DNA of 64,000 nt from Amoebophrya sp. A120 (Eukaryota; Protista; Dinoflagellata): NCBI GenBank assembly GCA_905178155.1, contig CAJINV010000003.1, forward strand, positions 7,336,601 through 7,400,600, read 5' to 3'. Positions within the stretch are counted from its first letter, which is position 1, and every line of letters begins with the position of its first letter. The notes under the pieces were generated by a model. That model did no database searches. It was not told where the DNA came from and saw only the letters and a program-made list of their open reading frames with translations. The translations under genes were made by a program, and so were the position numbers. Positions 31,407 to 62,000 of this stretch are shown piece by piece.

Positions 31407-32041
31407 CCAGGGATATCAAATGTAATAAACACGTCCGGGCTCTGCCAAATGAAAAGAATATAGAAGCATCATATGACTTTATTTATATATTTGTTCGGAA
31501 GAATTTCTAGATCGGCCTTCACGTGAGTATTCCTCAAAGAAAATCTTCAGAGGAAGAGCTCCATGTTGACGATGCTCGTCGCATATAAGCATATTCACAT
31601 GCCTGTCAAGTACTTTTATCAGCACAGAGACCAGAGCTGCAAAGAAATACTACGGAGTTCTGCGCAAAAACGGCTCGAGTGATAGTCCTCAGCATTGCCT
31701 TTTTTCACGAGCATGCCCAGACTGCAAATTAACGAAGCATAGGTGCCACGAGGTGGTGGTTGCAGAATCAGTGCCGCGCGTTATGGGAGTGTACGATTCC
31801 CCCACCGTCTCATTTGGAAGGGAGGACTAGCAAGTAAGAAGAAGTTTAGCAGGAAAAGAAATGCTTGCACGCTCTGCATTGCAAGTCTGCGCTTGCGCAT
31901 GGATCTTAGTACTATTCTGAATGCTGCAAATGCACTTTTTCAACATAACACGCGAGATAGTGCTAAGTACAAGGCAACGGCAGGCAGAGGAGTTGCGTTT
32001 GTCCATGACAAATGAGGCGGAGGGGCAGTTCTTCGTGTGCA

Positions 32042-39916: not shown

Positions 39917-42900
39917 TTCCGATCTATGCAAGTAGAAACCTCCGCTGGTACAATCTCAACTGGAGGAACAAGAAGTTGAAGATGCAAAATCAACTCGGAT
40001 TGGCTGACTGGGACTAGGTCTATCTGAGCTATTGTATTGCTCGACAACTCTATGCAGCTCCGAAATGCACGTATACACGGACAGAGATAAATATGATGTA
40101 AAGCTGTAGTAAATAGACTTTTCTTTTGGTTTGTTTTCCTTTACGGACGGTCTTTGCATTTTTGAGATTGTTACAGCTGAGGGGTTCATACGATTGAGTT
40201 TCCGCTTTGGCTCTGCGTTCGGCTTCCGCTTTTCAGGCTCTGGACCGAGCCTTTACCTCGGATTGGTTGTGTATTTCCAAATTCTTCGTCGTAAAATCCT
40301 TGACCTTGTCGATGCTGGTGGCGCTCTTGCTCTCGTGGGAGGTCCTCGTGCTCTTCCCGTACTTTCAGTGCGGAGATTATTCTAGTGTAGTTGACTATGT
40401 ATGTACCCCCAAACCTCAGCGAGAGCTCCAGCTCTTTGGCGCACCGTCAGGGTGGCTTTCGCTTTCTTTAGGCCCTTGCTGGTTGTACTTGCAACGTCGG
40501 TCGTATACGCGCTGGTCGCTTGTCTAAGCGGTGTATTTCATCAGTAGCTGCAACAGATTGTAATTGGTCCAGCCCCAAATCGATGACACTTCGTCATTGC
40601 GAGACCGCGCATCCACAACTGTCACGGCGATCTCGTGCTCTTCTCCACTTGATGCGAATCTTGTCGCTCCTCTGCTATTCTCGGAGGAAGTTTCACCCGC
40701 TAGGCAGCAGGTTTCACTGAGTCTGGAAGGGGCCGCGGATGCTCCCCAGAACGGAGGGGGCCGTGTGTAATGCGGGGTAGCATCAAAGATAGAACATCTG
40801 CGCAGCGACCGGACAAATTGCGCTACCGAAACCAAGAGGGAAAAACTACAAAGCTTCCATATTTATCTCCCATTTATTGACTTTCTGTTTACAACAGCCT
40901 TTTGCCGCTTTCACGAAGATTCTTCGTATAGAAGACGCCACACCGAGTGAGGCCGAGATTGCTTTGTTTCCACTCATAAACGAAATACTTCATGGAACCC
41001 TCGTATCGACTAGCGGATTCAAGAAGAGAAATATAATTTTCTCTTGATTATCCGCGATGAAGAGGGAGCAAGAAACGGTGACCTGCAGCTGGTCACACCG
41101 AACTACAAATTCCTCTTCGACTTTCTCGACACTCTTTCTATGATTGCCTCTCACTCTCGTCCACCCAAGTACGATATGAAGATTTCGTATTCCAGGACAT
41201 CCACGACAACGAACGACCTTCACAACTTCACGGCTTCCACTCAAGAACGTAGCTGTGAAAAAGCTCCCCGCGATACCAGTGGCGGCAACGCGTCGCTGTA
41301 CAATGCCAGAGAGAGGTCTCAATTGGGCTGGTAACAAAGAGGATGTACACCCTGCCAGCACGATTGCGATTTCAACGAAACAGGACGACCGGAACTCCGA
41401 ATGACAGTGTCTTTGTGGTCCCAGTCGCTCCAGAAACCAGACGGCTTTGCCATATTCGCGAACAATGCCATCTGGCAGGCTTATACCCTCCCACCAGGGT
41501 CAAGTCGGCGCGTGTCGCGACCTTTCTTTGTTGATGTCGCCACCATCAACAAATTTCTGAGATGAGTGTAATATGTTTTCTGACAAGAAGGGATCTGAAA
41601 ATTGTAGCTGCTTCCTACATGCACAGATGCAGTTGCTGTTCCTGGTTCTGTAGGGTACAACGCACAATGCAAATCCGATCTTTTTCTTTGTTATGGTCGT
41701 TTGACGACTTTCAATGTCTTTGAATACCATGAGTTTTTTTCCCGAGTCAGAATGCTATGAACATGATTACGACGTTGCCGCACAACAAAAAGCATGCGTG
41801 ACGCGTCTATGTGAAAGAAAATGAAATAAGGCAGTCACACATGTATGCATCGGTCTCCACGTGACTGTGCCTCGAGCTCGACTTTCCTCCCCATATTACA
41901 CAAATGATGCACATGATCTTCCAAAAGATTAAGTACACGCTCAATGCATTCTGAGCAGGTGGCAACGGAGTACTTAGTCGGCCACCTTCAAGAAAGTTCA
42001 AGAAGCAAGATAGACGCGATGTAAGTAGTAGAGTTCCAAAAATAAAAGAGCTTGCTTCTTGCTCCTACCTACAGCTACTTCCGCACCCAAATGCTTCGTA
42101 CTGTGGTTCTCGTTCTCGAAGCGGAAACAAAGAATCGATACATTTCTCATGTAAAAAAACGCTGCAAAAGAAGTTTCCCTGCACAAAGCGAATCACGGTT
42201 CTGACCAAGGATAAAGAAACATTTATGTTTCTGTACTATGAGTATGTTGGTTAGAAGTCTATCTAAGTACAAAAGTAAAACACCAAAAAAAGGTTCGCAA
42301 ACGGGAAGAAGTAGGAACATATCAACTGTAAAAGTGTCTGGGTCTGGAAGAATTCATGTTTGTCATGCTTGTCTGGCATGGCTCTTAAATCTGTCATGCA
42401 CGTTACCCAAGCGCTCCGTTTTTCTGTGATGCAGGAGCGCAGTTTGTCATGCAGAATAGGCAACACCTAGGAGCTCAGAAACTTGTCATGCTGAGCCAGC
42501 ATTTGTAGCCTCATCATGAGACGCCACCCAGCATCACAAGTTTCCAGACCCAGACATTTTTACATTTGATAGAACAATAGCAGTAGCAACTCAGGGTAAA
42601 GAAGCTGCTGCATGTTACCCACCGCAAACCGCACCCGATAAAGCATTTCATTTCGTAAAAAGTCTCCCTGGGCAAAAACAAATACAAATAGAACAACTAA
42701 ACACCAATTACCGGACTAGGAAAATTACACACGAAAGAAAATACATTCAACATCGGACCAAAAACAAAATATAGGAAAAAGCTCACGAAAATGGATAATC
42801 TTACTTAAATCAATTATCTGTTGTAGCACGTTAACCCGCGGTGGCTGCAGTAGCTGCATTGACCGAAGGTCTTTTTTAGAAGTAGCTGTGCATTTGTTTG

Positions 42901-43480
42901 TCGTTGTCCCATACCTAATCAACATTCATAGGGAACGGAAAGCGTCAAACTGTTGATGTGGACATCTTCGTCAGCGCCAGTTCTTGTAGAGGCAAATAGC
43001 TTGTAAGCACAACTAGGTTCTTGGGAGCATCCTCTCCACTACAAGTCGTGCTAGTGCTCCCCGACACCAGCAACGACAATCGTATGGATTAGAATTTCTC
43101 GTGGCCTCATCGTATTAGAAAGACCATTATAAATAGAGTACTGCTTATGTTCATGCTCCTTAAAAGAAATGATCTTCTCGGAAGATGGATGAAACATATG
43201 ATATATGCTATTGCTAATCACGACAACTCATACAAAAACTCACTCGTAGTTCCTTCGTGGAAAATAGCGGACAATAGCTCCTTCTTGCCGATGCGGACAC
43301 AGGTTCGAATCGTGACGATGAGGCATAGTAATAGTTTAGTACTATGTGGAGGAAGATATCATTTTCCACATCAGCCGCTCGGAATTTGGTAGCTCGAAAT
43401 TTCTACTTCATAGACAACTTCGTTAAACTAAATACTTAAACACGCTGTCTATCAAATTCTTTCCAGCGGAGCATGCATGT

Positions 43481-45370
43481 TTAGTCGATCTTCGTCCGGG
43501 TCATCTCCAAAGCCTCCTGCGCAACTTCATCCAGATTCTTCAGCGTAATGCGGATCGCCTCCCAGTACGGCAAGCTTTTGTACTCCTTCCCGTGCTTTTC
43601 GAATACGGCACGCACACGCGGCGAAATCTTCGGGAAGCGAAACTGTGGCATTTGCGGCCACAGGTGATGTTCGATCTGTATATTATTGAATTTCATTTTG
43701 CAAAAGTAGTAGCACAGGAACTTGGAATCAGTTGCTTTGCCTGATACTTTATGTGTTCTGATTCTTCGTGATCCTGTCTTAGGATAGTGGTACTCAACAT
43801 CGGAGATGCTTCTAAATGCCAGCGACGTAGCTGTTAGACACAAGCGCAACTACAGGTGTAGGAAGAGAAATACACAAAACTGCTTTATACTTCTGCTGCT
43901 ACGCATTATTTACAGATACAGACGCAATAAAAATTGTAAGTATGAATATACGAAAACCATGCGAACCTGAAAGTTGAGGAAGCTCATCCACCAGTTGGTA
44001 AGAAAGTGGCTGTCGCAGTTCATGGTGTGGTCGGAGGCGTATTCCGCCCAGTTCCGGTGGTCGTCCTCGGGGACGACGTCCAGATGCGTGTGGGAGACAG
44101 TGCGTATCGAAACAAATTTCGAGTCGAATCCAATGCAGAAGATGAAGATTTTTGAAGTGTCCATGAAAATAAAGTGTCGTTCTCGCACATCAGATGGTTG
44201 CGTTTTTAGTTTTACCTCTTTTTCTTTTGATGCGGCCCCTAAGCTGCAGAGAAGAAATTGAAAGCGTGTGCCGCGTTTGTGTGTGCATTGTCCTTTTTAT
44301 TGTGCCGTTCTTTGCATTAACTTTAACTCGAAATTGTTTCGCTTGAGTAACGAAATTGGTGAAGATGTAGCTCGCGCCAAGCTGGACGTAGACAACGTAA
44401 AACATGACGCTTCCTAGAACGGACCACTGCAGCGACCCGACCAGGAACGCGAACAAGGCGACGTAGCGACAGGTCATCCAGAGCAGCTCTACGTAGTTCT
44501 GCGTGCGCATCGAGTGGCGGGGGTGCAGGTAGAGTTGCCAGAACAGCGCAACCAACAGACAGATCAACGGAGAGAACAGGTACGCTTGGTTTTTCAGCCA
44601 GTAGTTCGCCCACAGAGTGAGTTGTTTCTGCTTCGGGCCGGCAACCAGCTTCTGGCCCGCCCGTGTGTCTGTCACGGCTCCGGTGTGGAACGCGACCAGC
44701 GGTAAAGTGTTCAGGTCCACGTCATGTCCCACCTTTTGGGGGGTGGCGTGGTGTTTGTTGTGCTGGTTCGACCACCAGGAGGCTGCCATGCCGCACCCGA
44801 ACCCGTAAATGAACTGCTGCAGACGCTTGTCCAACTTCATCCAACCGGTCAACGAATAGTGACCGCCCTCGTGCTGGAGCCAGCCGCAGCGCCCCTGCGC
44901 GATTCCGAGGGTGATCAGACCGAGAAGCACGAACGTCGCGGAAAGTACGGAGTCCACAAAATGATCGCCGGCCGTGCCCCGGCTGGTGCCGGTGGTCCTC
45001 GTGCCCGCGTAGTACAAAAACCCGAGCCCGATGACGTGCATACACACGATCTCGGTCACGCGATACAGTGCGTGCAGGGGAGAGGGCTTAAAGTACCCCT
45101 CCGCGTCCAGTTCCGCCTCCAGTGCGCGGATGTCCGCAAGCAGCGCCTGGTTACCGACGTTCACGAATTCCGCTTTCTCCTTCGCACTCACGGGCTCGCG
45201 CTTTGGCAACTTTGCCAAAATCTTCGCTGCCTTGGCGGACCGGTGGTGGAACTGCGCGAACGCGTCCGTCCCATCGGTCCCCGCCATGAACTCCAAAATC
45301 CGTCCACCGGGATGCTTCTTCGTGTAGCTGGTCACGTCGACAATCTTCCCGTCAATGAAGATCTCGATTT
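43481..45370 (-). other. Domain: cytochrome b5 + front-end desaturase, delta-5-like
   Basis: IDGKIVDVTSYTKKHPGG; GIAQGRCGWLQHEGGHYSLTG; WWSNQHNKHHATPQKVGHDVDLNTLPLVAF; LNFQIEHHLWP. Resembles thraustochytrid/algal delta-5 desaturases. Confidence 0.85.
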
Positions 45371-48300
45371 TCTTCGATCCCTCCGCAGCTTCCTTCTTCG
45401 CCTCGTGGTCAGGTTTAGCATCAAGACCAACGACCAGTTGTGTCGCTTCCTCCGGCTTCTTCATCTTCGACCCCTCCTGCTCCTCCTGTCCCTTCAGGAG
45501 AGTGACAGCGGAAGTAGAAGACATGATCACGTTTTTGGTGTCGACAGCGTTACTAGTGCAGCTATCGTCGGTGCTTAATATCAACGCAGCAGCGGCCGGG
45601 AACTCTACCGGATGCAGCATGCCTGTCGTCGGCGAACGGATCATCTTTTTCACCGTGGTTCCATCCTCCACCTCATCAGCACACTTCTTCTTGGGGGTCG
45701 CCGCTGATGAAATAGATGACGTGCTGGCGTAGTGGCTCGTAGTCGTACCAGACTTCGACAACTGTTTCATGGAGTTGGCGATTCCGCCGGTTTTGGACGT
45801 GGACTGGTAGAACTGCACCCCGTGCACACCATTGACGTGCTCACACGTCTTGATCACGTTGCAGAGCACCTCGGAAAACACCGGGCGGGGGTCGAAGCGA
45901 TACAGGGACCCCAGAAGCGGCTTTACGCACTCCGTGGCCTCCGCGGCGTGGTAGTGCGGAATTTTGAAGTTCAAGTGATGCATGACGTGGGTGGACCCGA
46001 TCTTGTGGTGCAGGTGGTCGATCCACTTCGGATACGGCCGATCGATCGTGCACAGTGCCCCGCGAAGCCAGCTGAAGGACTCAGGACCGAAGTGGGGCAC
46101 CTCTTCGTCCGTGTGCTGCAGCCAGGTGTACAACACCAGCCACATGTTGGTGACAAGGTAGGGGCCAAAGTAGTACACCAGCACGGTTTCCACCCCCGCC
46201 CGCTGCGCCCACGCGGCCAGGAGTCCGGCCATGAGCACCAGTCCGACGGCGGACAGGTTCACGCGCAGGTGCCAACTGGGCGGAAAAATTTCGGAGGACG
46301 CGCCCGCATAGAAATGCGTGACGTTCTTTTTCTTGTTCAGCTTTTGGCCCCTCCAGTTGACGCGACCCCCGGTGAGGTTGAAAACCAGGTACATGGGCCA
46401 ACCCAGCACCAAGTGCAGCACTAGGTCAAGCAGGACAACGAAATTCTCCGAGAAAACCGGCACGTGCTTTAGCGAGTCGGACAGCTTGTGCAGCCACGTC
46501 GGTTTCGCGGGCGGCACGTGCGTTTCGCCCAGGGTCAGGTGGTTGGTGTACTTGTGGTGCTTGGCGTGGGTGAACTGCCACGCGAAATAGGGGACGAGCA
46601 ACACCGTGTGCGTGACAAACCCCACCACGTCGTTCAGCAAGGAAGACTCAGAGAAGGCGCCGTGGCCGCACTCGTGTCCCACCACCCAAACGCCGGTGGC
46701 GGCCGTGCCCATTAAGGCCGCGTACACAACGTTCAGTAGCAACCGGGGCGCGCCGAGAACGTCCGCTCCGAACGGAATGACGTGGAAGCGAAATGCGTAG
46801 TAGATCCCCGCACAGTAGACGCAGTCCCGAAAGAGATAACTTGCGGACCAGAAAGCGCTACGCTTCTTCAGCCGGGCGGGAATGGCAGCCATCACTTTTT
46901 CCTTGGTCAGGTAGTTCGTTGCGGCTTCCCACTCCTTGATGTCTTCGATCAAGTCCAGGGCACCCGCGGACACCGAGGATGGAGTTTTCATTTTCGTCAA
47001 GCAGGCCGCCCCTTCAGCCGAAGCGTTTTTAGTGGGCGCAAAGTCGTCCTCACGCTCCGACTTGGCAGAAAAGTTCGCCAAGGTCGGCTCTTTGCCCTCC
47101 TGCAGCCGGAGCTGCCCACCCTCGGCCATATCTGCACCAACGGAAGCGACTTTTGTGGGCTCTGCTTGTTCTCGCGGCAGCTGCTTCACGACGGGCTCGA
47201 ATTTCAAGTTGCGCACCTTGCAGAGCGGCGGGCCGGAGAGCGACTCGATCATCACTTCGCCTCGGTCGGCAGCCTTCTTCTGCATCCGGTTTTTCCGTTC
47301 CGTCCACATCCGGGTGCCCCGCTTCCGGTTCTTCACGAGCCCGAAGGCGGCCAGAAGGTCGATGAAGAGCTTCGTGGGGTTCCACTGCTGCAGGCAGCCC
47401 AGCTCCGCAGTGGCGTAGTCGAACGCGAAGGCGTGGTGCCAGCTGTGCCAGCCTTCCCCCATGGCGAGGAAGGAGACCAAGCGGGACTCGGACGGCGGGT
47501 GCTCGGGATCGTAGGGGGACGGCCCGAAGTCCGTGTGCACGATGCTGTTCACAGCCCAGGTGCAGTGCAACACGTACACGTACCGCAGCACCCCGGCGTA
47601 CAAGAACCCGTTCCACAGGGTCTCGTCCCACGCGAACACCGCCACGAACGCGGGCACCGCGAAGCACCACGCGAAGTTCCACCACGGGTCCGTCTTCTTC
47701 TGGAACTGCACGAACGCGTCCGCCTGCAGGTCCGTCACGTCCACCTTGCGGCCCGCCAACCGCACCGGCTCCGGCTTCTCGACTAGCAACCAGCCCATGT
47801 GCGAGTAGAACCACCCGCGGTTGCTGTCGTGCGGGTCGCTGCCGGTGTCCGAGTGTAGGTGGTGCGTTCGGTGGTCGCGCGCCCAGTGGAAGATGCTGCC
47901 CTGGTTCGCGATGGAGTTGAACAGCATCAGGAGGCAGCGGGCCACAGACCCGGCCTCATAGCTCTTGTGCGCCCACAACCGGTGCGCTCCGGCAGTGATC
48001 CCCAGCCCCGAAATGGGCCACAGCGCCAGGGACAACGCCAGCGTTTGCCACTTCACCGGCGCCGCCAGGTCGGTTGGGGAGAGGATGGCATCTTCGGACA
48101 GAATGCCCGCGTGCACCAGCACCACTCGGATGCCGGTGTCCAAAAGTTGCAGTACCAAGTCCTTCCCGCCCATGCAAAGCAACACAACGCAAGCGTGCAA
48201 CGCAAGCAAGTGGTTGATGCCGAGGTAAAAGCACATGAACACATTTAGCCGGTGCCCGAACGCGAAGATACCCGCCGTCTTCGTCTTGCTCCGGGCCCCT

Positions 48301-51300
48301 GCAGTGGCCGACGCGTCGCCGCCGTGCTCCTGCGCCGCTTTGTTGTACTTGTACTCCGACTCGTCCTGCTCCATAATGGCCTGCTCCAACTTGAGAAATT
48401 GCCGCTCCAGGAACTTGGGACCGGCGGTGCGGGGACCCAGCAGGCCCATGACGATGCAAACAGGCGTGTACGCAAAGTAGAAACTCCCCACATAGACCAT
48501 CAGCAGGTACACAGAAATCACCAGGTAGAACTCGAAATCGCCGGAGAAGAAAATCTTCTCAAAGCCCAGCTGTACCGGAGCCAGCAGCAAACGCAAAAAG
48601 AAGCTAACCAGGTCCCCGACGGTTGTGCGGCGTTCCGCTGCCTCGTCCTCCTCCTCCTCGTCCCCAGACCAGAGGTCCTCTTGTGACGACGCAGATGTGG
48701 AGCAAGTGAGACTGCGCGGCAGAGGCAGCTGCATCACCAGGTCCTCGCCGGCACTATCGGAGGACAGATCCACGGTCTTGTCCTCCGCACCAAGCAGCTT
48801 CTCATGGTCGCAGCTGCCGTTTGAAGAGGAACGGGCCAGCGGGACCACATCGCTGTCGGCTTCAAAATCCGAACAGTCTCCCGAGCTTGCAGAACTGGTC
48901 GCGATGGATACGTCGGAGGCCGGCTTCTTCAACAAGCTCGCAGGATTGATGTGTTTCATCTTCGAGGTGGAGTCCTCTGCGGCGTCGACGTCCCTCGCGG
49001 CACCGAAAGCCGCACCACGCCGTTGCTTTCGGCTGATGTTGGCAAAGGCCGGACTCAGGTCGCCAAGGACCTCCAGTCCGCGGATGGTGCACGAAGGAGC
49101 TGCATGGCCGTGCGCACTGGCCCGAAGAAACTGGTCCGCTGACAGATCCACGACCTGCTGCTCCTGCTCGACGAGGAAATTGTTGTAGCAGGATTCCAGA
49201 TCCTTCTCCACAGCGCGCATCCAATTCTTCACACGGTACATGGGAATTTGGGCCAAGCGGTTTTTGGCGAATGGCAGCCCATGATGCAACGCGCTACGAT
49301 TGCCGCTGCCTGCCGGTGAAGTGGTGCCACTTCTCAGCAGGTTTCGCGACTGCCCCCCGAGAAGATCCGTGGCGCGCGGGCGCGTCGCCTTCTCGAGCAC
49401 CCTGGCCCATTTCTGCAGCTTCTTGGTGAGCCCGGGAGCGAGCTTGTCCACCGAAGCGGTCCGCGACAGGTGGTGCTCCTCCTCTTCGTCCGAAGAAGAG
49501 GAAGAACTCGTCCCGCTGGCGCTGTGCGAGAAGCCGGCGCGTTTCTTCTCGGCGCGAGACCACTGGTTCAGCCGCATCAACACCAGCGGAACTACGAAGT
49601 AATTCATTGAGAACAGCACCGTCTCCCAAGTTGGGAGCACGAACAGACAGGAGAGCAGATGAGGCTCACCGGCGACGGCGTGACGATGCAGCAACCCCAT
49701 GGCCGCGACGGTGCCAATGCAGGTCAGTGCGAAGACGTTGCGCCGCTCCAGCAGTGCGCCCAGGATCCGGTTCTGCAGCGAGCTCGGGGAAAACACGTTC
49801 TGGGCGCAGTCTCCCCGCACGCAGTCTATTCCCGCGAAGGCCACGCAGGAGAGAAAGACGCCGCACAGGATCCCGACGGGAGAAGAGAAGGACGTCGTGA
49901 ATAAAAAGCCCAACACCAGCAACAAAAACGCCTTCATCAGTGTGCTCGTGGACTGCCGGAAAGACGCCTCGGTGTGCACACTTTTGCTCAGTTTGGTCGA
50001 CGTCGTCAAGGAGCGCTCCGCCGAACAAAGCTGCGTCTCGCCACAGTCACTCTCTTCTACTTCGACGGGAACTCCCGTACTATCGTTCGGCTTTCCAAAA
50101 ATCTTTCCACTTGTTCCCGTTGTGACAGGTGTTGTGGTCGAGGTGGAAAACATGTGCAGCCGACACATGTTCCGCTGCACGTTCTCCTTCAACAGGCGGA
50201 AGCAGATCGACACACAGTCTTTCAAATTGTCCTCCGCAAATCGAATCTGGTGCTCGCCGCACACCTCTTTCACCAGCGAGGTCATCTGGCGCAGGTTGCA
50301 CCGCGGCATCAAAGGAAACAGGTGGTGCTCAAACTGCGTGTTCAGGCCGCCCGTGAGCCAAAACCACGCGTCCTCCTCCACTTTCGTCCGCGAAAAGGAG
50401 CGAATGTTGCGCACCGTCCGCGCAGTTTCCTCCAGCAATCCAATGCGCCGAATCTTGAGAAACTCGGAAGCTGGAGGTTCTTCTTGCGGTGCCTCTTGCT
50501 CGCCTACTTGTTCCTCGTTGCTTTCTTTTCTGAGACCGTGCGCAGTAGACGAGTTGCAGTTGCTCGTCGCGGTCCTCTTCACGAGAAAGGTCTCGAAATC
50601 CTCCACCGAGAGACGTTCCTCGCCATAGTGCGACGCAAATACAACGACGCCGCTCGCAAGTCCGGAGAGGTAGTAAGCCCCCGCCAGCCCGGCAAAGGTG
50701 AAGAGGGTGCAGCCGCAGCAGTAAAAAATCGGCGCCACGATGCACGCATAGTGGAGCAGCAACGCCAACACGTCCCACCGCGCGTGCGCCCGAGTTACCT
50801 TGTTCTTCGAGCTCCAGTGGTGGGTGGAAGCGATCCACGACTCCACGTGCCAAAACAACAGGGGGACCAGCCCCACCAGTGGGAGGAAATACAGGTGCTG
50901 CAGTTTCGTCACCAGACCAGGCGTGAAATCCTCGAAGAAGTGGAGCACCGGCGAGAGCTTGATGTCCGGGTCGTTGTCGATCTCATTGGTGACCGCTATG
51001 GTGATGCCAAACGTGTTTCTGTGGACATCTGTTGCATGATCTTTTGTCAATTCGTAACGCAAGAACACAAAGGTCGGAGCGTGCTGTGTGTGAGTGTACG
51101 ATTCTTGCGTTACAAATTTGGCACGGGTTTCGTTGCTGTTCAGTGCATCGCAAACTTGTCCTGCAAAGTAGCTATCAATCTATGTTGACTATGACTAGGC
51201 GACGGCCGACCCAATGAATGGAGCTTCATCTGGTGCATGAACAAACCAAGAAAATAAAAACATATTTAGATATATAAGATGTCGATCTCCACACAACGTT

Positions 51301-54008
51301 CGAGAAAGCCATAACCGCATGGTGGGTGTTGTGCCGCAGCTTCCAGGACAGCACGCTGGTTGGGCGCACGATGGTCAACGCCCAGGCCATCCAGTCATTG
51401 ACCCTACAGAACTGGGTGGTGCTCTTCACCAGCATGGTGTGGTGCGACCAGTCGTGCCCAAGCCACCCGAGCTGGTACCAGCCAAAGGCCATCGACAACA
51501 GTCCGCCGAAAAACCGCGGCTCCGCCCCGCCCGCGGACGCACACACGAAGTACATGCCCACAAAGACGAAGCCGAAGCTGTAGAAGGCCTTCCACATCTC
51601 CGAGCCAACCTGGGCCCGGAACAGCCCGCGTTTCTGGGCAGTTTCCCAGAGCTGTTCGTACAGACTAGGTTCGTGCGGGATCTTGGCGAGCTCCGGTTCG
51701 GGAGAGGACACTTTCGCCATGGTCTCAATGAGGCGCCGGGCTTGGTCCGAGTGCATTGCCAGCATCACGTCGGTTGCATCCCGCAGGTGAAAAATCCGCA
51801 GTACCTTCACCCCGCCCGGGTGCTTCCTCTGCCATTCTTCTGTGATGCGGATGGGCTGACCCTTGTAGTAGATCACGAGGTCCTTGCCTTTGATGCTCGA
51901 GTCCTTTTTCTCCGCGACCTCCTGCGTCGCGACAGAAGAACCTGTGCAGCTGGCGTTGCCCTTGTTGTTCATCGTGGTCTGCGACTGCAGCTCCAAGGGT
52001 CCGTTGCCGTTTTTACCCAACAGCGCGGCTCCGTGTTGTTCGTCCTTGCCTTTTTGTTTGTGCTGGTTCGCTTTCTTCTTCAGCAAGTAGGTCTGCCGGT
52101 AGAAGTTGATAAACATGGTCAGGTTCATGAGCACGTAGCCGTAGTTGAACAGGAAAGCGGTCCGCTTCGCGTCGTCTTCCCAGAATCCCGGCACGAACAG
52201 GTACGGCAACACGACACACAACCCAGACACAAACTGCAACAACTGGAGTTTGTTGTGGCATAGTTTTATTCAAAATCTTTTTGCGCATATTGAAGAGACG
52301 CATGATGTACACATCTTCGTTCATATACTTTTACTCACATACTCATAAATATACTTCTTTCGAAAAGCGTGGTACCTGCAAGTTGGTAATCATCTGCTTC
52401 CAGGGAAACGGCCACTTCATGATGCAGCACGCGTAGTAGTAGTACATGACGGTGTGGATGAATCCGTTGAAGACTACGTAGATCCACGTGCGTTTATCCA
52501 GAACAAATTTCGAGTCAAGTCACAGAAAGCAAAATAATGAAAAATACAACTGCTGCAAATCGAGTTTTCCCCTGTTCGTGCGATTGCTCGAGGCCATATC
52601 TCCTTCGTTGTGTAAGAATCGAAGAAGTTCACATTTTGCATTCGCTATCAATATTATCAACGCCGTACCGCTCCTTTCAACATGCAAAACGACCGAGAGC
52701 GGACGAGTAAATGGGCAGAGCCAGAAGAGTAGGTCGCAAGCATCTTTTGCGACTTCTGTAGCAGGTACAAGAATATGATCACTTTTGACGCAAGATTTGG
52801 TGGTTGGATAGCCCTCAACCTGGTTGTTGTGCCAGACTCCAACGTCCAATGGCGCGCCGATGTGGTGCAGGAACTGCAGCCAGATCACGGGGCGGTTGCA
52901 GAGAATCAGGAAGTAGGTGTCCAGGTATTCGAAATACTTGGAGAGGTAAAAGTAGTTGGAAATCCGCGCGTACGTTTCTGATTCGTAGTGCCCCAGCCCG
53001 TAAACGCCGGCCGGAAGCTCCGTGCACATGGCGTAGACCATCACCACACAGGCGTACAAGGAAAAGGCAGCCATGGCGAGGTTGTACACGCACATGATCA
53101 TCTTGCACTATGCGGATCAACAACTACCCCTCCATCTTTTACAAGTGTCATTCTTGTTCCAAAGGACATTGAAATTAAAAATTCTGATGCTGCATGACCA
53201 CTAGCCGCAGTCCTTCAACGCCGGACTGTGTCGATCACAGCACATCTTCGTACGACTACTGCCTCTTTTTATCTTTTCCCGCAAGACCACGAGCGATACA
53301 TATTTACCAGTACCTCTCGTTCCAGTCAGTGCTTTCGTTACAACTGTAGCGCCAGTCTCCTTTCATTATGACACGGCGAGGATGGAGGGCGTTCTTTTCG
53401 ATTTGGGTAAGCAAAACTTCTTGTTCTTTTCGTACACGTCGGTCGTCTGCACAAACCGCCGAAACAGCTATCAAAGGAAGAAAATGAACTGTCCGTTAGG
53501 GTTAGGTCAAAATAAAAATTTGCTGACAGGAGCGTAACAGTTAGTGCAATGCATAGCCCAGCTATCTTCAAAGTGTGGTGCAGTATACTCGGAGAAAAAT
53601 TTGGGATTCAACCACCGGTCCTTGTCAAGTGCCCGGATGAAAAGCGACACTGCACAACTTATTTTGTCTCGCTTTCTATTCTTTGGACATGCTTCTTGAT
53701 TCAGGCACTGGAAGTCAACGACATGCCTGACCACGAGCCTAGTGAGAGTAGGGCTCAATACCGCACGCTCACACTTTCGGCTTCACTTCATGACATTTCA
53801 TCAGTGCATTTGATAGCAGCGGCTGTCCCACAATGTAGGGAATCGTGAGCAAGTACAAAGGGTCGAGAAAGTGCTGCACAACCGCAGTTTCCTGCAAGGA
53901 ACTCAGGAACCCAGCGTCCTCGATTTTCATCTTCGCACCGTCCAACTGCACAGTGGACGGATTCGCGATAATCTCCGACACCAGGTCGGAAACCGATGAA
54001 GAAGCCAT
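43481..54008 (-). CDS. Multifunctional PUFA biosynthesis fusion protein (~2,847 aa): ELO elongase + b5/delta-8-like + degenerate desaturase + delta-9 + delta-12 + b5/delta-5-like desaturase
   Basis: Predicted exons: 54008-53775, 53107-52811, 52489-52376, 52242-51316, 50993-44352, 44101-43967, 43675-43481 (8,544 nt, all in frame). Most junctions rebuild conserved motifs (EG|TWIYVVFNGFIHTVMYYYY; NLQ|LLQF; HNTHHA|VTNEIDNDPDI; NF|xVSHTH; LNFQ|IEHHL). Confidence 0.9.
45800..46920 (-). other. Domain: delta-12 (FAD2/omega-6-type) desaturase
   Basis: AAIPARLKKRS; GVWVVGHECGHGAFS; WQFTHAKHHKYTNH; WLVLYTWLQHTD; LRGALCTIDRPY; HVMHHL. Confidence 0.9.
47290..48260 (-). other. Domain: acyl-CoA delta-9 (SCD/OLE1-type) desaturase
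   Basis: GLGITAGAHRLWAHKSY; WARDHRTHHLHSDTGSDPHDSNRGWFYSHMGW; TWAVNSIVH; GEGWHSWHHAFAFDY. Confidence 0.93.
49180..49970 (-). other. Domain: degenerate methyl-end (FAD2/FAD3-like) desaturase relic lacking intact His boxes
   Basis: GIDCVRGDCAQNVFSPSSLQNRILG aligns by eye with GVWVVGHECGHGAFSESSLLNDVVG. ALHH...QIPMYRVKNWMRAVEKDLESCY aligns with VMHH..KIPHYHAAEATECVKPLLGSLY. Confidence 0.6.
50170..51880 (-). other. Domain: cytochrome b5 + front-end desaturase, delta-8-like
   Basis: WQRKHPGG...RDATDVMLAMHS; QLGWLGHDWSHH; WKLRHNTHHAVTNEIDNDPDI; VVFASHY; GGLNTQFEHHLFP. Confidence 0.8.
50997..51313. mobile_element. Introner-like non-canonical intron, duplication GCGGT, TATGG...CCATA ends
   Basis: GCGGT occurs at both junctions. 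No register gives GT and AG together. Excision rebuilds the second His-box region. Confidence 0.75.
52080..54008 (-). other. Domain: ELO/GNS1-SUR4 elongase, delta-9-elongase type
   Basis: FYLSKYFEYLDTYFL; WLQFLHHIGAPLD (Q-x-x-HH variant characteristic of delta-9 elongases such as Isochrysis ASE1); NGFIHTVMYYYY; FNYGYV. Confidence 0.88.
52495..52810. mobile_element. Decayed introner-like non-canonical intron (TATCCA...TGGATA)
   Basis: 6-bp terminal inverted repeat. Duplication is AGGGC/AACGC. Removing the element plus 5 bp gives QVEG|TWIY. Confidence 0.65.
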
Positions 54009-56024
54009 GACTCGCGCTGACTTTTCTGCTCTAGCAGTTAGCAGGAGAGCAATCTTCTATTGCAGTGCTGGCTGCTTTATGAACTTGTGCCGAGTACAAC
54101 AACTGTGCGGGGAGACACAGTTTACTGCTGCCCTCTTTACGCCTATTAAGCACAAAATGAAAGATATTTAGCGACTCATCGATGGTAGAAGTGATAAGCG
54201 GCCTTTGTTCCAGAAAGGAAAGCTGAAGCAGAAAGGAGAGCTGAAGCAGATTCGCTTTTTGATTTTCACGACATGTCACTCGCTCCGTCCGTTTTTCAAC
54301 AATTTGGGCCTAATATTGATCATTTAGATTCCTTTTTGGCTTTGTTACAAGATCAGCAGCGGATTCTGGTTTGATAAATACTACATCGCCATCGTGCTGC
54401 GCAGTTAGAAATACTGCACACACTTCGCTAGTGTTCACTACAACTCTATCAATTTTGCGTGTACCCTGGTGTCGAAGTGCGAGTGCTACACACTTCGTGA
54501 ACAGTTCTTGATACCTCGACAAGGTTCGGTTGGACCAGCATCGCAGCGAGCTTGAGCAAAAATGTGATAAATATCGTTCTGTGAACATAAACAAAAACCA
54601 CCTCGGACGATATACTTTTAATCCACTTTGGCACTACTTCTAGCTCTACCGCGGGTACAAGGCCTATATATGAAAATTGGTTCATTATCCTTTGCTACAT
54701 GGTAAGGCCGGATCCGGATGTAAGCGAAACTACAAGGAGCCTCGCTGTACGTCAGGACGCGGGCGACATAAAAAAGATTGTGCAATTCCCGTGTTGCCAT
54801 GAATCACGCTAGGCCGCGCATTTGCTCTTTACCGAGTCCACCGAGACTTCCAAGCAATACATCTTGGATGTGCAGCAGCAGCACGACGTGTGCAAGACTT
54901 TGCATTCACACGCACCTGGTTCCACGCGGGCGTCCGCGTGGCATGGATATGGAACGAGTGGCGGCACACGACAGCGGAGCCTCTTACCTCAACCCGCGAC
55001 GCACAGCCTGGAACTCCTTCGCTGTGGTTCTAGTCCGCGAATCACGTTCAATTGCTTTATCTTCAAGGTGTGACATGGGTCTACGCAGCGGCATGACAAT
55101 GGAAATGGCTTTATTGGCAATACTATTCTATGAAAATTCGAATTCCTTTGGCTGATTTCCAAAAAATGCATGCCATCACTGTAGCCGTTCTGCGAGCCGT
55201 GAGCCCAGCCTATACCGACCGCGCGGCTGTCACAACAGATTACGCGTCAAGGCCTAGAAACGTCAGATATATCTTTATTTACATACTTACTTGAATCAAG
55301 CTTCGTTTTTCTTGGAAATCCGTGGTTGGCGCGCAGTTTCAGTTTCAATGAGCAGCATTATTACAAAAAAAAACTTCGATTGATAAGCCTTCCAAATACA
55401 AGAAAGCACTGCGATTATTCGTAGCATACGTAGATAAAAACGAGAATTCGCGAAAGGAACAAATGGACGTTTGGTTGACGTCAGCGTGACACTCAAAATT
55501 CAACTTAACAGAAATAGACCAAGTAGACCTACAAGAGCGCGACGGTACGTACCTAAATTTCATCTGACCTGCTAAGTTAGAAGTAGTACAGCAGCGATCG
55601 CCAGTGCGACAACTGGTGGCTTGAGGGTGTGTCACAATTTTCCGCCAGCAATCTCAGATCGATAGTTCAAAAAAACACTTTTTTGTTCGCAACTACAGAA
55701 TGCGATGGTGTGCGAGCACGTGTGATTATTTTAAATCGTTTCGGTAAGTACAGCTAGGAATTGAAAGGATGCCTTGTAGTTATCTAATCAGTTGCAAAAG
55801 CAAATTTCTCAACAGCCCCTCGAGCAGGTCATTATGTATAAAAATATTGAATTATACGCAAACTTGTTTCTTGTGCTTCGAGGAAATAATTCGAATTTCC
55901 TCAATCCGAATTTTACCATTATCATACTCGACGGAAACAGAGTGAGAAAGTAGAAGTCACCTGCGTGCACCAAAATTATATTGTTACCGTCTAAACATCA
56001 ACGAACTAGGACAAAGGTCTATAC

Positions 56025-59000
56025 CTACGGGCTCGGAGCTGGAGAAGGAGCGGGGGTGTCGCTCTTATCCTTGTTTTTTCTCCAACATTCCATCCCCTCT
56101 ATACCGCCATCGTAGGCGGAATGGACCTGTATCATCGGCACATCCTGAGGAGCCCCTCCCTCTTTGTCTTGTGGTATGTGCCTCGAAATTACGTGGTAGT
56201 TGATAAGGTTATAGGGGTGTACAAGAATGTATTCACGGTCGGGACGGGTATCCTCGGGGCCAATGACGGTCGGCCCCTTAGTCTCGTCGATATGCACGCC
56301 AAGAAGCTTGCACGTCGGACCCTTATGGAAGTTTCAGCATCGAAATCGACAAAATCGAAAAACTTGTGATGCATAAAATCGATACCAGTCGGAGCCTAAT
56401 TTTGCAAGTGGCGCATGACAAATTTCGGGAGCACCCAAATCCAGTCTGTCATGCTGTTTGGGCAAAGTAAGAAGACTGCTCCCGTCATGCTACTCTGGCA
56501 GCACATTGCATACCCCTACACAGGCTTACAATCGGTCTCATTTGCCTGCTCCCCAATACAGGCCTCCGGTGCCCTACATCTTACGCGTCGCAAATTTTTC
56601 GATTTTGTCGATTTCGATCCTGACACATCCATAACCCTGCGCAGTGACGTAGTATTTCTCGAAGCCGAGGCAGTCCGCTATGGGATTCTCAGCCGTTACA
56701 TTCTCAGCTGTTACATGATTTGTCATGTTGGGAGACTAAGGGCAGGGCGTCCCTGTTTAAACCACAAGACTACAAACTTAAACCGTTGTCGTCGTCGTAG
56801 GCAGCCGTGCGCGCACGAATGCGGGCGGAATAGTGACGACCAGAAGGGTCAGGAGACTCACCTTTTGCGAAGGAAGAAAGACTGCTGAACCCGCACGCAA
56901 AGCTTCGGCGGGCCGACACAAGTGCCGGTCTTGTAATGTAGAGCAATCGAAAATCCGACGTCCTTATGTTCGCTGTTGTTAAGCTCCTGCCGGTGATCGC
57001 AGCACCTGGAGCCCGCACGAACTGAAAGAGTAGCGCGCAGCTAAGGACTAACTAGACTCGAACGCCTCTGGCCACCACAAGCGGTGACCGTTTAAATAAT
57101 TACTCCCCGAGCGGGTAAACTCTAAGATAGAAACTTGATTTGTCATGCAAAATTACCATGAGCCAGCAGACGATCTCGATCAAGCTACCTTGCATGACAA
57201 ATCCCCGATGGGCTAAACAGCGCCTAAATCTGTGCCGAATTTGTGATGCGAGAGTTGCGAGCTTGCTCCTTTCACTGTTGCGGCTCTTGCGTCACAAACT
57301 CATCCCATGTAACAGTTGAGAGTGTAACGTTTGAGAACACCATATCCGCAAACTCGTCGCACAAAGCCCCGCATTGCTGCCACGTGGGCGCGTTCGACAA
57401 TTCTATCTCTTCCGACTCGAGATAAAAGGTTGTCACGGCCCAAGGCCGGTAGCCCCCACTCGCTGCCACGCAAAGACCGTCCCCCAAGTTCTCGTAAGCC
57501 TTCTCGACAAGCACGCACTCGTGGTAGCCCATTGCTGTGAACTCCTCGAGGGCAACGTGATGACACTCGACTGGGTCCTCCGCATAATTTTTCATGCAGC
57601 AAGCGCCCTTGTGGTGGTGCGCTTCGCTCGCCAGCCCGTCGCAGCTCGTGCAAAAACCGGGCTCGCAGTGACTGCTGCAGTCCCGTTGCCGGGGCCCACA
57701 GCCATCGCACACCGGTGCTCCAAAATCGGGCGTCGCAATCACGGGCACCGCATTCGGATCATTTTCGAACAGCCAGAAACCGCAGAAACCGAGCGCATAC
57801 CCTTTCTTCTCAATCCTTATCGAAGATATTTCTTGGTCGACTGCAATCCAGGTTCCGAATATTGAAAGTGAAGTTGGGAGCACGATGTCCGGCTGCGTCT
57901 GCGAGTTTTCGTTGAGATAAACGTCTGCGCCTTCAACTCCATCTTCGGATATATTATCCTCTATATCGCGTTTGAAGATAACAAATCCTGTCACGTTGCG
58001 TGGTTGGTCCAGCTTAATTTTCCACCAGTGCAGCGTATTTTCCTCATACTTCGAAAAAAAGCACTCTTCGCAAAGGTTTTCTTTTTTGCACTCGCTTTTC
58101 TTGAAAGTGCCTCCTCTAAGATCGTCCAGAAACAGATGTCTGTTAGGAAACTTGTGGTTAAACACGCTTTCAGGCAGCCAGTTGGCCCAGGTGAAAGTGG
58201 TTGGATATGTACTTGAAGCCGTCGCATTAAACTTATTCGCTACTGGATCAAGAAACCGACCCGTAATTTCCTCCGGAGCATATATGTTTGTCGTACCCGC
58301 ACGCCCCAGCTTCCGCTTCTGCAACAAGCTACTCGCCTCGCGGTCCCATACGGGGGTTCGCGCACCTCGGTCGTCCGGATCCTGCTGTCCCGCTTCTGCT
58401 GGCATGTCCTCCAGATGAAAAGGATCAACACGCTTAGTTGTAGAAGATGACCCCGTGTCGTGGGCCTTTTCACGTGACCGGGCCACTGGGCCATGCCCCG
58501 TGGCAGCACGGGCGAGGGGCTGTAGTTGCAGCAACAGCGACTCGTCTCCGGTTGTTTGCTTCTCCTCTGCGTTGTCTGGGAGCACCTGAACCGGAATCAC
58601 ACACACGTGGTAGTCCGTCACTCCAAAAAATTCGTTTGCAGCCACACTTGCGCACTCCCGGCTAGTGGACGTATCCTTTTGGCAGCAAGCGCCGAAGCTC
58701 GTTCCGTCCTTCGAATCGCACGCACTGCACCAGCCACCACCCTTTGTGATGTCGCACACATGGGCACACTCCATCTGCCTCGGCCCCAGCCTGCTGTCGT
58801 CCTTGATGAGATCCTTGGTTTCCCTTCCCGGCATTTTCTCCGGCGTGTACAGCACGCACTGGTGGTAGTCGTAGTAGACCCCCGGGTCTCGGGGTGGGTT
58901 CATGTTGTTTTGCCGGCGAATCTCCCCAGGTGTATTCATGCCGAAGTGACTGAAGGGAATCTGTTTGCATTCCGGCGGATCAGTGGCGCGGTTCGCATAG

Positions 59001-62000
59001 CAACACGCCCCCTTTGCACTCCCATCTGCTGCGTCGCATCCGTCGCAGTCGCCAGCGCCGCCGCACATGGTTGAGCATTCTTTCATTCTCGGCCCACAGC
59101 TCTTAGGTCCATCGGCGCACTTGGGTGTCGCGCCAGATGAAAGAAATGCCACGTTGCCGCCGTATTTGATATTGTCAGTACTCCACGAACCTTCACCTTT
59201 AAAAGGGTCAAGGAGTGCGGTCTCAATCTCTAGTAAGTGAAGGACGGCCCCATCTTTTCCCGGAACCACGGTGATCTTATGAACCGACCCGACGCCGCAA
59301 GAAACCCCTCCCCCCAAGCAGAAACTTGAGGCATCGCGCGCGTCGAATTCTTGTTCATCGTTGTTGCTGTCTACCGGGTAACCGTTAGCGTACAAGTTGG
59401 TTTCAGAGGTCGCACCGTTTTTCGTGAACGCCTCACTTCGGATTTTGTACCACGGTCCTTCGTCCATTCTGAGCCAGATCAGGTCGCCATTAGCTGCGTT
59501 GACCGATGTTGGATATTGGTCCGCTGGGATACCGGAACCGTCCAAAGACCTTGCCAAATCAATGTTCGTTGGCGGAGTTCCACGAACGCGGGCAGAAAAC
59601 TTGAACAAGTCACTCGGATTCGGGCACCCCTGCTGTGGATCGTGTATCTGCAGGCATTTGGCCTCCCCCAGCGCCATGAAATAGAATACCGCTTCGCTCT
59701 GGCTCAGGTCGTCGTCGCACGTCCCATCTCCAGGTCCATCGCTGCATGTCCTTTCCTCGCCGCCCGCGGGATTGTCGGGACACCAGATCGCGTCTGGGTA
59801 CGAGCTGCCATCGTGCTTCCTATAGAGCGGCTGCCAACACCCAGACAAAGTGCCTTGTTGTCCCCGGATGTGCTTATTTTGGCCTGACCGGCCGAAAAAC
59901 CAGCCATATCCAGAGTGGTCGGCGTAAACCCACGTTTTCTCATTGGCTCCAATCTGTGAAGCTATCTGAGTGTTTACAATCTTCGCTCCGAGATCGGCCT
60001 CGGCAAGAGACGTATCCGCGGTGGCACTATAGATGTGTGCTGTGGCTGGAGGTGGAATGAGCCCGAAAAATTGCCACTCAGCCCTCGACCTCCCCCGCAG
60101 ATTCCTTGGCACACGGGTTTTATCTAATGAATTTTCCGTCCTGGTGTTCCGGGGCCGTCTATTGCTCCACAGCATGCAACAGGCATGCTCCATCTTGCCT
60201 GCTGCCACTCCGCCACCCAAAACTGGCGGCTTCATAAGCGATGCCATGCTGTAGTCCCGGTATGCGTATACGCGGTCCTCTGTTGCTACACTGCCAGAAT
60301 TGCTGTCCTCAATCTTGCCCTTGTACACGCTGAAAGAAGTGCAGCCGACGGTCGTCCGGCATCTGTCCGCGCAGTCCTGCGGGTGTCCGCTGAATGTAGA
60401 CCCGCGTCTATCGCATCTAAAAACCTCCACCCCAGAACGTCAATGATCAAAGCAAGCGTATGCGTATCTATACTCGTGGTCTTACATTCGTATAAAAGAA
60501 AACCATGCGAGCGGCTCAGACCCGAGTTTTTTCGCTGCCTGTCGCGCACCATGACAGGAAAGCATAATGCGACTGCGCAAACGACCCCACGTCTGTGACT
60601 GATTATATTCATTTTTCGACTTTGTACGTCATGTTTCCGCCCGGAGAACGGTCACCGGCGTGAGTGTGTTGACCGGTGGATGAAAAAACACGACACATGA
60701 TGAAGACGAGAACAAGACGCCTCGCAGCATCTCCAATCAATCGCACGCGGCCTAACCATGGTAACGCGATGGAGGAAACAAGATTGCTACCAAACAAGGA
60801 CAAAGGCCACTCCCCCCAAAGAAAGCCAGACTCTACCTCCATCGGCTTTGCCCTGCGAGATCCAAATCCAATCGCGAATATTGGCATTGAGATTTATGTA
60901 AATATAATAAATATGGAACGGTATCACTCGTCGCTGCCTACAGTTAGTGAGCAACAACGGAAACGACGGACGAGTGATGAGACAGCCCTGGCCTCGGTTC
61001 GTGCCTCATGATTGAAGAGTGCGGCCTCCCAGTAATATGGGAATGCTGAAGAGCCTTGGTCTCATCGTGGCCAATCACAATAACAATATGCAATATCATC
61101 AAACAATTATGTGAGGCGCATTCATTATACGCAAGTGCACCACTTTGCGTTTATCTCCTTCTGCAGTCAGACTGTTACGGTTTAAATGAGTCACTTCTCA
61201 TGCCCGTACCGTGCGGAGGTTCTTACACAGCATATTCTCCGACTCCAAGAGAAGGAAGGTATTCCTCGGATTCGAATAGTTGGAACCCGCAGAAGCCCCA
61301 GCCTTTCGGACCACTCTGCTTAATCTGTATTCCGCTAATTCTTTCGTCAATATGAACCCAGGTCCCATACGGCGAAAGAAAACCAGGAAGCGACATATCG
61401 GGCGAAGACGAATATGATCCGGCGCCCCGCTTTAGATGCACGTCCGCACCTTGGATCCTGTCGTCCCATTCTCCACCGCGATCGATGTCTCTTCGGTAAA
61501 TAAGAAACCCAGCAACGCGCCGCTCTGCGAATTCAACCTGCCAATAATGAGTAATATAAGCGTCGACCTTTGTCCAAAAGCAAGAATCTCCGTACTCCCA
61601 GCTCCAATCCCGTTCGCCTGCTCCTTCTCTCTTCAAGCTCGCATCATAAAAAGCCAGATCAAGCGAAGACACGTGGTCCGGCGGGTCTGTGCGTAGATAC
61701 TTCATGTGAAGCCTTTCGTCGCACCCGGGGGGTGATGTAGTGCACGCATCTTCTGCCGGATTTATATCAACGAGCTCGTTCGGGAATCTGCGCGCGAGCA
61801 CTTGTGCCGGGTAGTAGTAAATTTTGAGACCTGGTTCCGCACTTGTATCTCTCGTGTCGCCGGTGGCTGTCAACTCAGGACTCCCATCTTGATAGGGGTG
61901 TACATAGTGACCCACGACTGGGGCACCGGTGGCCTTCTCAAACAGCCAAAACCCGCAGAAAACCAGATGGTGATACCCACCTTGAGCCTTGTTGGAACTC

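Follow-up and report, generated by a model that had tools for sequence, protein, structure and literature searches.

We describe a gene of the dinoflagellate Amoebophrya sp. A120 that encodes an elongase and four intact desaturases in a single protein of 2,850 amino acids (aa); from domain matches and motifs we show that all five belong to the expected families. The gene lies on the minus strand of a 64,000-nucleotide (nt) stretch of DNA (the window; contig CAJINV010000003.1, positions 7,336,601 to 7,400,600), for which an original prediction had been made from the letters alone; coordinates below are positions in this window. The locus is one gene with one spliced reading frame, and it is expressed. 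Its product is likely (at a probability of roughly 0.65) one uncleaved membrane protein of the endoplasmic reticulum (ER) that is predicted to convert stearate (18:0) to arachidonic acid (20:4n-6) by the alternative route.

A single spliced reading frame with five catalytic domains

A minus-strand stop-free frame at 44190-51179 (2,329 codons from stop to stop) contains four FA_desaturase stretches and a cytochrome b5 domain according to Pfam, and the minus-strand frame at 51226-52269 joins the C-terminus of an ELO-family elongase to a b5 domain and the N-terminal half of a desaturase with no stop between them, as had been claimed for the exon preceding the largest one. The exon structure is given by contigs from four spliced sequencing runs (X1-X4; two samples from one study, presumed to be RNA), which were compared with a DNA-like run (X5); in all, eight of ten listed runs were aligned to the window. 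The same seven stretches of the coding region are missing from the contigs of every spliced run but kept in X5. Joined at the contig joints, the coding sequence (CDS; 54008..43481) is 8,553 nt long and translates into 2,850 aa followed by one terminal stop, with none internal, and this translation is identical to the database protein P0001, an "unnamed protein product" of Amoebophrya sp. A120. The continuous frame of about 2,850 aa in the original prediction is therefore correct, as is its stop-free exon with desaturase domains (6,641 nt by the listed joints against 6,642 nt, with a joint that can slide within a direct repeat), but the CDS has seven introns and not six. An in-frame stop lies 17 codons upstream of the ATG.

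Only two of the seven CDS introns are GT-AG, and with five non-canonical ones the model could not have been built from splice rules alone, which would be compatible with an assembly or annotation artefact that chains adjacent genes. Against this, more than 60% of Amoebophrya introns are non-canonical (PMC7789003); X5 agrees with the window, with no letter differences listed; the RNA-derived contigs give the same joints; and the architecture is repeated in three independent data sets at 39-53% identity. The check for misassembly has thus come out in favour of the assembly, and we regard such an artefact as largely refuted, with a negligible chance of being true. Four of the five non-canonical CDS introns are bordered by direct repeats of 2-5 nt, and four have terminal inverted repeats of 10-11 nt, equalled by 1-6 of 200 shuffles. 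One further intron, in the 3′ untranslated region (UTR; 42315-42571), is a 257-nt high-copy repeat with a 23-nt terminal inverted repeat, and is introner-like. A high-copy repeat also lies at about 56330-56880.

Each of the four spliced runs yields a contig of 7.4-7.5 kb that starts upstream of the ATG, extends to 45238-45243, and thereby covers the five inter-domain junctions. The six linkers of P0001 amount to 566 stop-free codons, for which the expected mean is 20.7 stops, and none of 20,000 shuffles was stop-free.

From the N-terminus, the protein consists of ELO, b5-desaturase A, an inactive domain, an element that we call X, a Δ9 desaturase, a Δ12 desaturase, and b5-desaturase B (Table 1). 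Only ELO, Cyt-b5, and FA_desaturase exceed the Pfam cut-offs, and no KS, ACP, KR, DH, or KCS domain was found in the protein. ELO (PF01151, cut-off 27 bits) scores 54.7 and 27.8 bits on the exon fragments and 129-139 bits in full homologues, and its His box (LQFLHH) is of the QxxHH variant, which occurs in some polyunsaturated fatty acid (PUFA) elongases as an alternative to HxxHH (PMC11951076). By the desaturase box signatures of the same source, A and B are front-end desaturases, each with an N-terminal b5 carrying HPGG and three boxes ending in QxEHH; the Δ9 domain has the stearoyl-CoA desaturase (SCD) signature HRLWxH/HRxHH/HxxHH, and the active methyl-end domain has the FAD2-like signature H(E/D)CGH/HxxHH/HVxHH. 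Pfam, the match to SCD1, and the His boxes agree in placing the families originally proposed (ELO, Δ9, Δ12, and two b5-fused front-end desaturases) in one frame. All five catalytic domains of that proposal stand, but a sixth, catalytically dead domain between A and Δ9 had been missed.

Table 1 Features of the fusion gene in the window.
Feature	Position	Strand	Basis
Whole CDS, 8 exons; 2,850 aa	54008-53817, 53464-53411, 53104-52811, 52489-52376, 52242-51314, 50991-44351, 44100-43967, 43675-43481	-	Joints of spliced contigs
Transcribed 5′ leader	54009..54144 (at least to 54144)	-	Contig pieces
ELO-family elongase, residues 43-272, variant His box LQFLHH (residue 158), predicted C18 Δ9-elongase	52081..53882	-	Pfam ELO; motif in all fusions
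Cytochrome b5 (HPGG) + front-end desaturase A, residues 338-808, HDWSHH/HNTHH/QFEHH, predicted Δ8	50151..51885	-	Pfam, motifs
Conserved inactive domain, residues 868-1135, predicted four-helix bundle, no His boxes	49170..49973	-	26-54% identity across homologues
Element X, 76 aa, hydrophobic, residues 1325-1400	48375..48602	-	45-67% identity; no family match
Stearoyl-CoA (Δ9) desaturase domain, residues 1445-1795, HRLWAH/HRTHH/HSWHH	47190..48242	-	PDB SCD1 E 3.8e-63; motifs
Methyl-end desaturase, residues 1866-2258, HECGH/HAKHH/HVMHH, predicted Δ12	45801..46979	-	Motifs; relatives annotated omega-6/Δ12
Cytochrome b5 (HPGG) + front-end desaturase B, residues 2398-2850, HEGGH/HNKHH/QIEHH, predicted Δ5	43484..45383	-	Pfam, motifs
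Transcribed 3′ UTR, about 1.7 kb	41560..43480	-	Joint, depth, record offsets; end point inferred

Homologues and the history of the fusion

A homologue search among 6,374 candidate proteins of 1,218-3,877 aa matched five, and four of these, including P0001, carry the complete domain order. A search for the same architecture elsewhere had been proposed with the original prediction, and it thus yielded three further full-length homologues, which come from three independent data sets and are 39-53% identical to P0001: P0002, a complete transcript open reading frame on a contig of 9,893 nt; P0003, a protein of strain A25; and P0004, with 2,755 aa on a contig of 8,989 nt and 39% identity. The 12 desaturase His boxes, both HPGG motifs, and the ELO box (LQxLHH) are intact in all four proteins. 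Compared with P0001, the catalytic domains are 45-79% identical, whereas the linkers are 0-26% identical and between 3 and 189 aa long; all the same, they are stop-free in the four divergent homologues. Because the linkers diverge freely yet contain no stops, selection has kept the frame open through sequence that itself varies freely.

Smaller relatives show how the parts can be combined. P0175 (1,181 aa) has only ELO, b5-desaturase A, and b5-desaturase B, with all motifs intact, while P0005 (2,014 aa) has a second, intact Δ9 domain after ELO, an original Δ9 domain without His boxes, and no B (Δ5-type) domain. Dead-domain/Δ9 and Δ9/Δ12 modules also occur separately, though some of these may be fragments, and element X, which has no Pfam match, accompanies the inactive-domain/Δ9 module and is also found in shorter stand-alone proteins. 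ELO comes first in all six fusions of this elongase clade, a placement that suits the topology of elongases, in which the N-terminus is lumenal and the C-terminus cytosolic. The simplest reading of these arrangements is that an ELO-A-B trio would have taken up a dead-domain/Δ9/Δ12 block between its A and B domains. Strain A120 also has a stand-alone Δ5-type paralog of 522 aa (P0007), and in each Amoebophrya lineage sampled the stand-alone Δ5-type gene (P0007, P0008, and P0010/P0351) is nearest to the fused B of its own lineage (tree support of 100/100, 94/87, and a weak 86/62), a pattern that suggests copying or conversion on several occasions.

The inactive domain (residues 868-1135) has no Pfam match, no His boxes, and no HxxHH, with GDCAQ at the place of box 1, and so lacks the three boxes of a methyl-end desaturase. 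It is conserved among homologues at 26-54% identity apart from a short insert, and an equivalent region precedes the Δ9 domain in 14 shorter proteins among 218 classified, one of them from Paramoeba. In P0173 an active ω6-type domain is joined to a Δ9 domain, and the inactive region can be aligned by eye with that ω6-type domain. With hhalign, the match to methyl-end domains is weak, with an E-value of 8e-4 over 36 columns at His box 1 (probability 25%), compared with 0.01-0.6 for other domains. Six of 16 inactive-type regions outscore all 336 reversed or shuffled controls, at 33 bits (P0089) down to 3.6 bits (P0001), the region of P0001 exceeding the best control by just 1.3 bits. A structure model (mean predicted local distance difference test score of 59) has a four-helix bundle followed by disorder, and fold searches with it returned generic helix bundles. 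The region is likely a degenerate methyl-end (ω6-type) desaturase that retained its membrane helices, and it probably acts as a structural spacer inherited together with the Δ9 module.

Other kinds of fusion were also seen (P0047, P0125, P0040, P0058, P0094, P0109, P0054, and P0173), namely Δ9 with b5 and b5 reductase, Δ9 with a cyclopropane synthase-like methyltransferase, ELO with Δ9, ELO with Δ9 and a Δ12 domain whose first His box is intact, and an ω6-type domain with Δ9. On a viral AT-rich contig (L012:9977-11066), an elongase gene stands beside a short b5/desaturase-like frame, as separate frames with no fusion.

Proposed working of the protein and its alternatives

In the working that we propose, the Δ9 domain would desaturate 18:0 to 18:1 on coenzyme A (CoA), and the Δ12 domain would produce 18:2 from 18:1, which is phospholipid-bound in known enzymes of that family. 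ELO would then condense 18:2-CoA with malonyl-CoA, the cell's separate reductase, dehydratase, and reductase completing 20:2, after which desaturase A would introduce the Δ8 bond (20:3) and desaturase B the Δ5 bond (20:4n-6). These enzymes could also make eicosapentaenoic acid (EPA) if the host supplied 18:3n-3 or if an ω3 desaturase were available. The two b5 domains would receive electrons from the cell's b5 reductase, and the Δ9 and Δ12 domains, to which no b5 is attached, would rely on a free b5 or on that of a neighbouring domain. We infer the ER location, the lack of cleavage, and this electron supply. Elongases act on acyl-CoA and several desaturases on phospholipid (PMC4973703, PMC13326528), and because substrates must shift between these pools strict channelling is unlikely; the advantage would probably be fixed stoichiometry, co-expression, and co-location.

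Several points weigh against this reading. The domain order differs from the pathway order. Short-read contigs are no proof of single molecules. In the RNA data the contig is interrupted within the second b5 (45238-45272), where a 35-mer also occurs in the stand-alone paralog (X5 is also broken there, with higher depth, and contigs of the paralog map to the same place). In the four spliced runs the depth of the overlapping 3′ contig exceeds that of the 5′ contig by factors of 2.7, 2.7, 5.6, and 4.6, which reflects either 3′ bias or a shorter Δ5-type message, and contigs cannot discriminate between the two. The nearest Δ9 sequence in AT5.2 belongs to a gene model of its own (399 aa), which looks mis-predicted. 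No biochemically characterised Δ8, Δ5, or Δ12 desaturase or Δ9-elongase was among the homology hits, and the predicted specificities draw on motifs and automatic names; QxxHH in particular is not diagnostic and in thraustochytrids marks a group called C20 elongase (PMC11951076).

The depth difference bears on the idea that the one long frame is carried mainly by shorter mRNAs, made by internal start or spliced-leader addition and consisting chiefly of a Δ5-only message, which could coexist with the reading we prefer. In-frame methionines ahead of the second b5 and the ready origin of stand-alone Δ5 copies from the B domain would fit it as well. However, 3′ bias accounts for the depth equally well, and none of the four spliced runs shows a branch in the 7.4-kb contig or has loose ends listed for it at 95%, though contig building may clip short leader tips. 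Moreover, stop-free linkers in four divergent homologues require translation through the linkers, and we consider this alternative very improbable. The check for transcripts that start or end between domains, which had been named as a possible refutation, gave an unbranched contig over all five junctions and the deeper 3′ end.

A different concern is that the protein is as described but its chemistry is not: A might be a Δ6 desaturase and ELO a Δ6- or C20-elongase, or the methyl-end domain might be a bifunctional Δ12/ω3 enzyme, leading to another route or product (EPA or longer). Front-end desaturase sequence is no safe guide to specificity, and the elongase box is open to the C20 interpretation mentioned above. 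In the tree, A and B fall into distinct clades, each with a single named member: a b5-desaturase of Perkinsus olseni (a hypothetical protein) with A and a "putative delta-5 desaturase" of Trypanosoma theileri with B. These are also the nearest named relatives of the two domains, at 37% and 44%, respectively. Elongase hits and cluster look-ups gave no characterised or informatively named member. KEGG rows of dinospore-upregulated genes in both strains list an ω3 desaturase, which would suit other chemistry, but also Δ8 desaturases, which would not, together with Δ9 and Δ12 desaturases; the rows have no gene ids and are not attributable to the P0001 gene (PMC6176090). The grouping of A with a Perkinsus protein argues for the Δ8 route, by which Perkinsus marinus makes arachidonate from a co-transcribed trio, with no Δ6 among its expressed sequence tags (PMC2868825). 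P0175 combines the same three activities that Perkinsus co-transcribes and also counts for this route. Finally, the LHHxGAPxD context of the ELO box presumably matches that of Isochrysis and Euglena Δ9-elongases. On balance other chemistry seems unlikely.

It is likewise improbable, in our view, that the product is a polyprotein, that is, one mRNA and one translation product that a host protease cuts into separate enzymes, so that fusion serves co-expression only. Dinoflagellates make some plastid proteins as polyproteins, most of the linkers are long, of low complexity, and predicted to be disordered, and three homologues share the short motif RSPTTG in the Δ12-Δ5 linker. RSPTTG is absent from P0004, however; a 2A-type motif was found in none of the five proteins, no 5-mer is common to different linkers, and the Δ9-Δ12 linker of P0002 is only about 3 aa long, features that would count in favour of an uncleaved protein.

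Elsewhere in the window, a transcribed contig (54550-56318) with no frame of at least 200 codons lies just upstream of the fusion gene, and the minus strand has a borderline phospholipase D motif (9150-12872), a NIPA/EamA-like transporter (30054-31415), and a cysteine-rich repeat protein with no Pfam match (57272-60439).

Known fusions and the meaning of the gene

Our literature search returned no description of this protein, but relevant accounts may exist in supplements other than that of PMC6176090, in papers behind subscription, or in patents. The word "desaturase" is absent from the main text of four Amoebophrya and syndinian papers (PMC6482013, PMC9478091, PMC7789003, and PMC13693241), and the accessible text of PMC3114564 and PMC10864609 has nothing further on the fusion. 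The Amoebophrya protein is thus apparently undescribed, as originally supposed, but a natural two-domain elongase-desaturase fusion is known, the Δ5-elongase/Δ4-desaturase "multizyme" of Euglena gracilis (Damude et al. 2008, as described in PMC13326528). Both proteins naturally combine an elongase and a PUFA desaturase in one reading frame, with consecutive steps in the Euglena pair and, as predicted, in P0001. Compared by description, the Euglena protein has two activities for the last steps to docosahexaenoic acid, whereas P0001 has five catalytic domains of four subfamilies and a dead domain, with a route predicted from 18:0. The component families and natural two-enzyme fusions are already known, and the five-enzyme form is an extreme case.

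The gene cluster of Perkinsus marinus, another alveolate parasite, has the same three predicted C20 steps, and the nearest named relative of A is from Perkinsus. The original prediction was right that the Perkinsus genes are co-transcribed but separate (PMC2868825), but the elongating enzyme there is a plant-like ketoacyl-CoA synthase of FAE1 type (title of Venegas-Caleron 2007, cited in PMC4973703) and not an ELO; in Amoebophrya there is one frame, with ELO, and Δ9 and Δ12 are included. Engineered Δ9-elongase/Δ8-desaturase fusions in EPA strains of Yarrowia are functional, with Δ8 activity nearly doubled (PMC4322222). They join the same predicted pair as the first 808 residues of P0001, but are artificial and bifunctional only.

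The PUFA synthase (Pfa, of the polyketide synthase (PKS) type) is also a multi-domain protein route to long-chain PUFA, but it is ACP-tethered and oxygen-independent, and P0001 has no KS, ACP, or related domain. The shikimate and tryptophan fusions of Amoebophrya consist of soluble enzymes, whereas every catalytic domain of P0001 is an integral membrane enzyme. These pathway-scale fusions (a six-domain shikimate protein and an AroG-tryptophan protein; PMC6482013), like the trifunctional crtIBY fusion of thraustochytrids (PMC10016063), resemble P0001 as whole-pathway fusions in protists, though they serve other pathways.

The long "stearoyl-CoA desaturases" of apicomplexans and chromerids (Toxoplasma, 1,042 aa; Chromera, 884-997 aa) also have a Δ9 domain followed by a Δ12-like one, with an ELO or ELO-like region before. 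Such a C-terminal Δ12-like domain was seen in Δ9 desaturases of Toxoplasma, Hammondia, gregarines, Hepatocystis, and Chromera (P0217, P0056, P0065, P0068, P0115, and P0234); those checked from Toxoplasma, Chromera, and gregarines have lost the first His box of this domain. The N-terminal ELO is clear in Chromera and a weak ELO-like remnant in Toxoplasma (E 1.7e-5, 13-protein search). These proteins look like relics of an ELO/Δ9/Δ12 fusion. In contrast to P0001, they have an elongase of an HxxHH-type clade, a Δ12-like part without His box 1, and a Δ9 domain in a separate clade (FastTree only), and their fusion is probably of independent origin.

A bolder interpretation, which we offer tentatively and hold to be somewhat doubtful, is that P0001 is an uncleaved membrane "megadesaturase", in which five integral-membrane catalytic domains would share the two b5 domains in one complex and make arachidonic acid from stearate from one transgene. 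It would then be the largest of an unrecognised modular family of protist elongase-desaturase fusions, with domains shuffled, duplicated, and inactivated like PKS modules.

In a 2026 review of PUFA engineering, the two-enzyme fusion of Euglena is described as underexplored, and the question is raised why fusion, if helpful, did not evolve more often (PMC13326528). With a natural, conserved five-enzyme fusion and its relatives of two, three, and four enzymes, fused and split forms of the same domains can be compared as a direct test of what fusion is worth, and P0175 is a smaller test object for the predicted C20 steps. Such a conversion normally needs five separate genes; if our reading is true, the gene would offer a one-gene route to arachidonic acid for yeast and oilseeds, in which many cassettes and silencing are limiting. 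It also suggests that Amoebophrya, a marine algal parasite, does not depend solely on long-chain PUFA taken from its host but can synthesise them itself.

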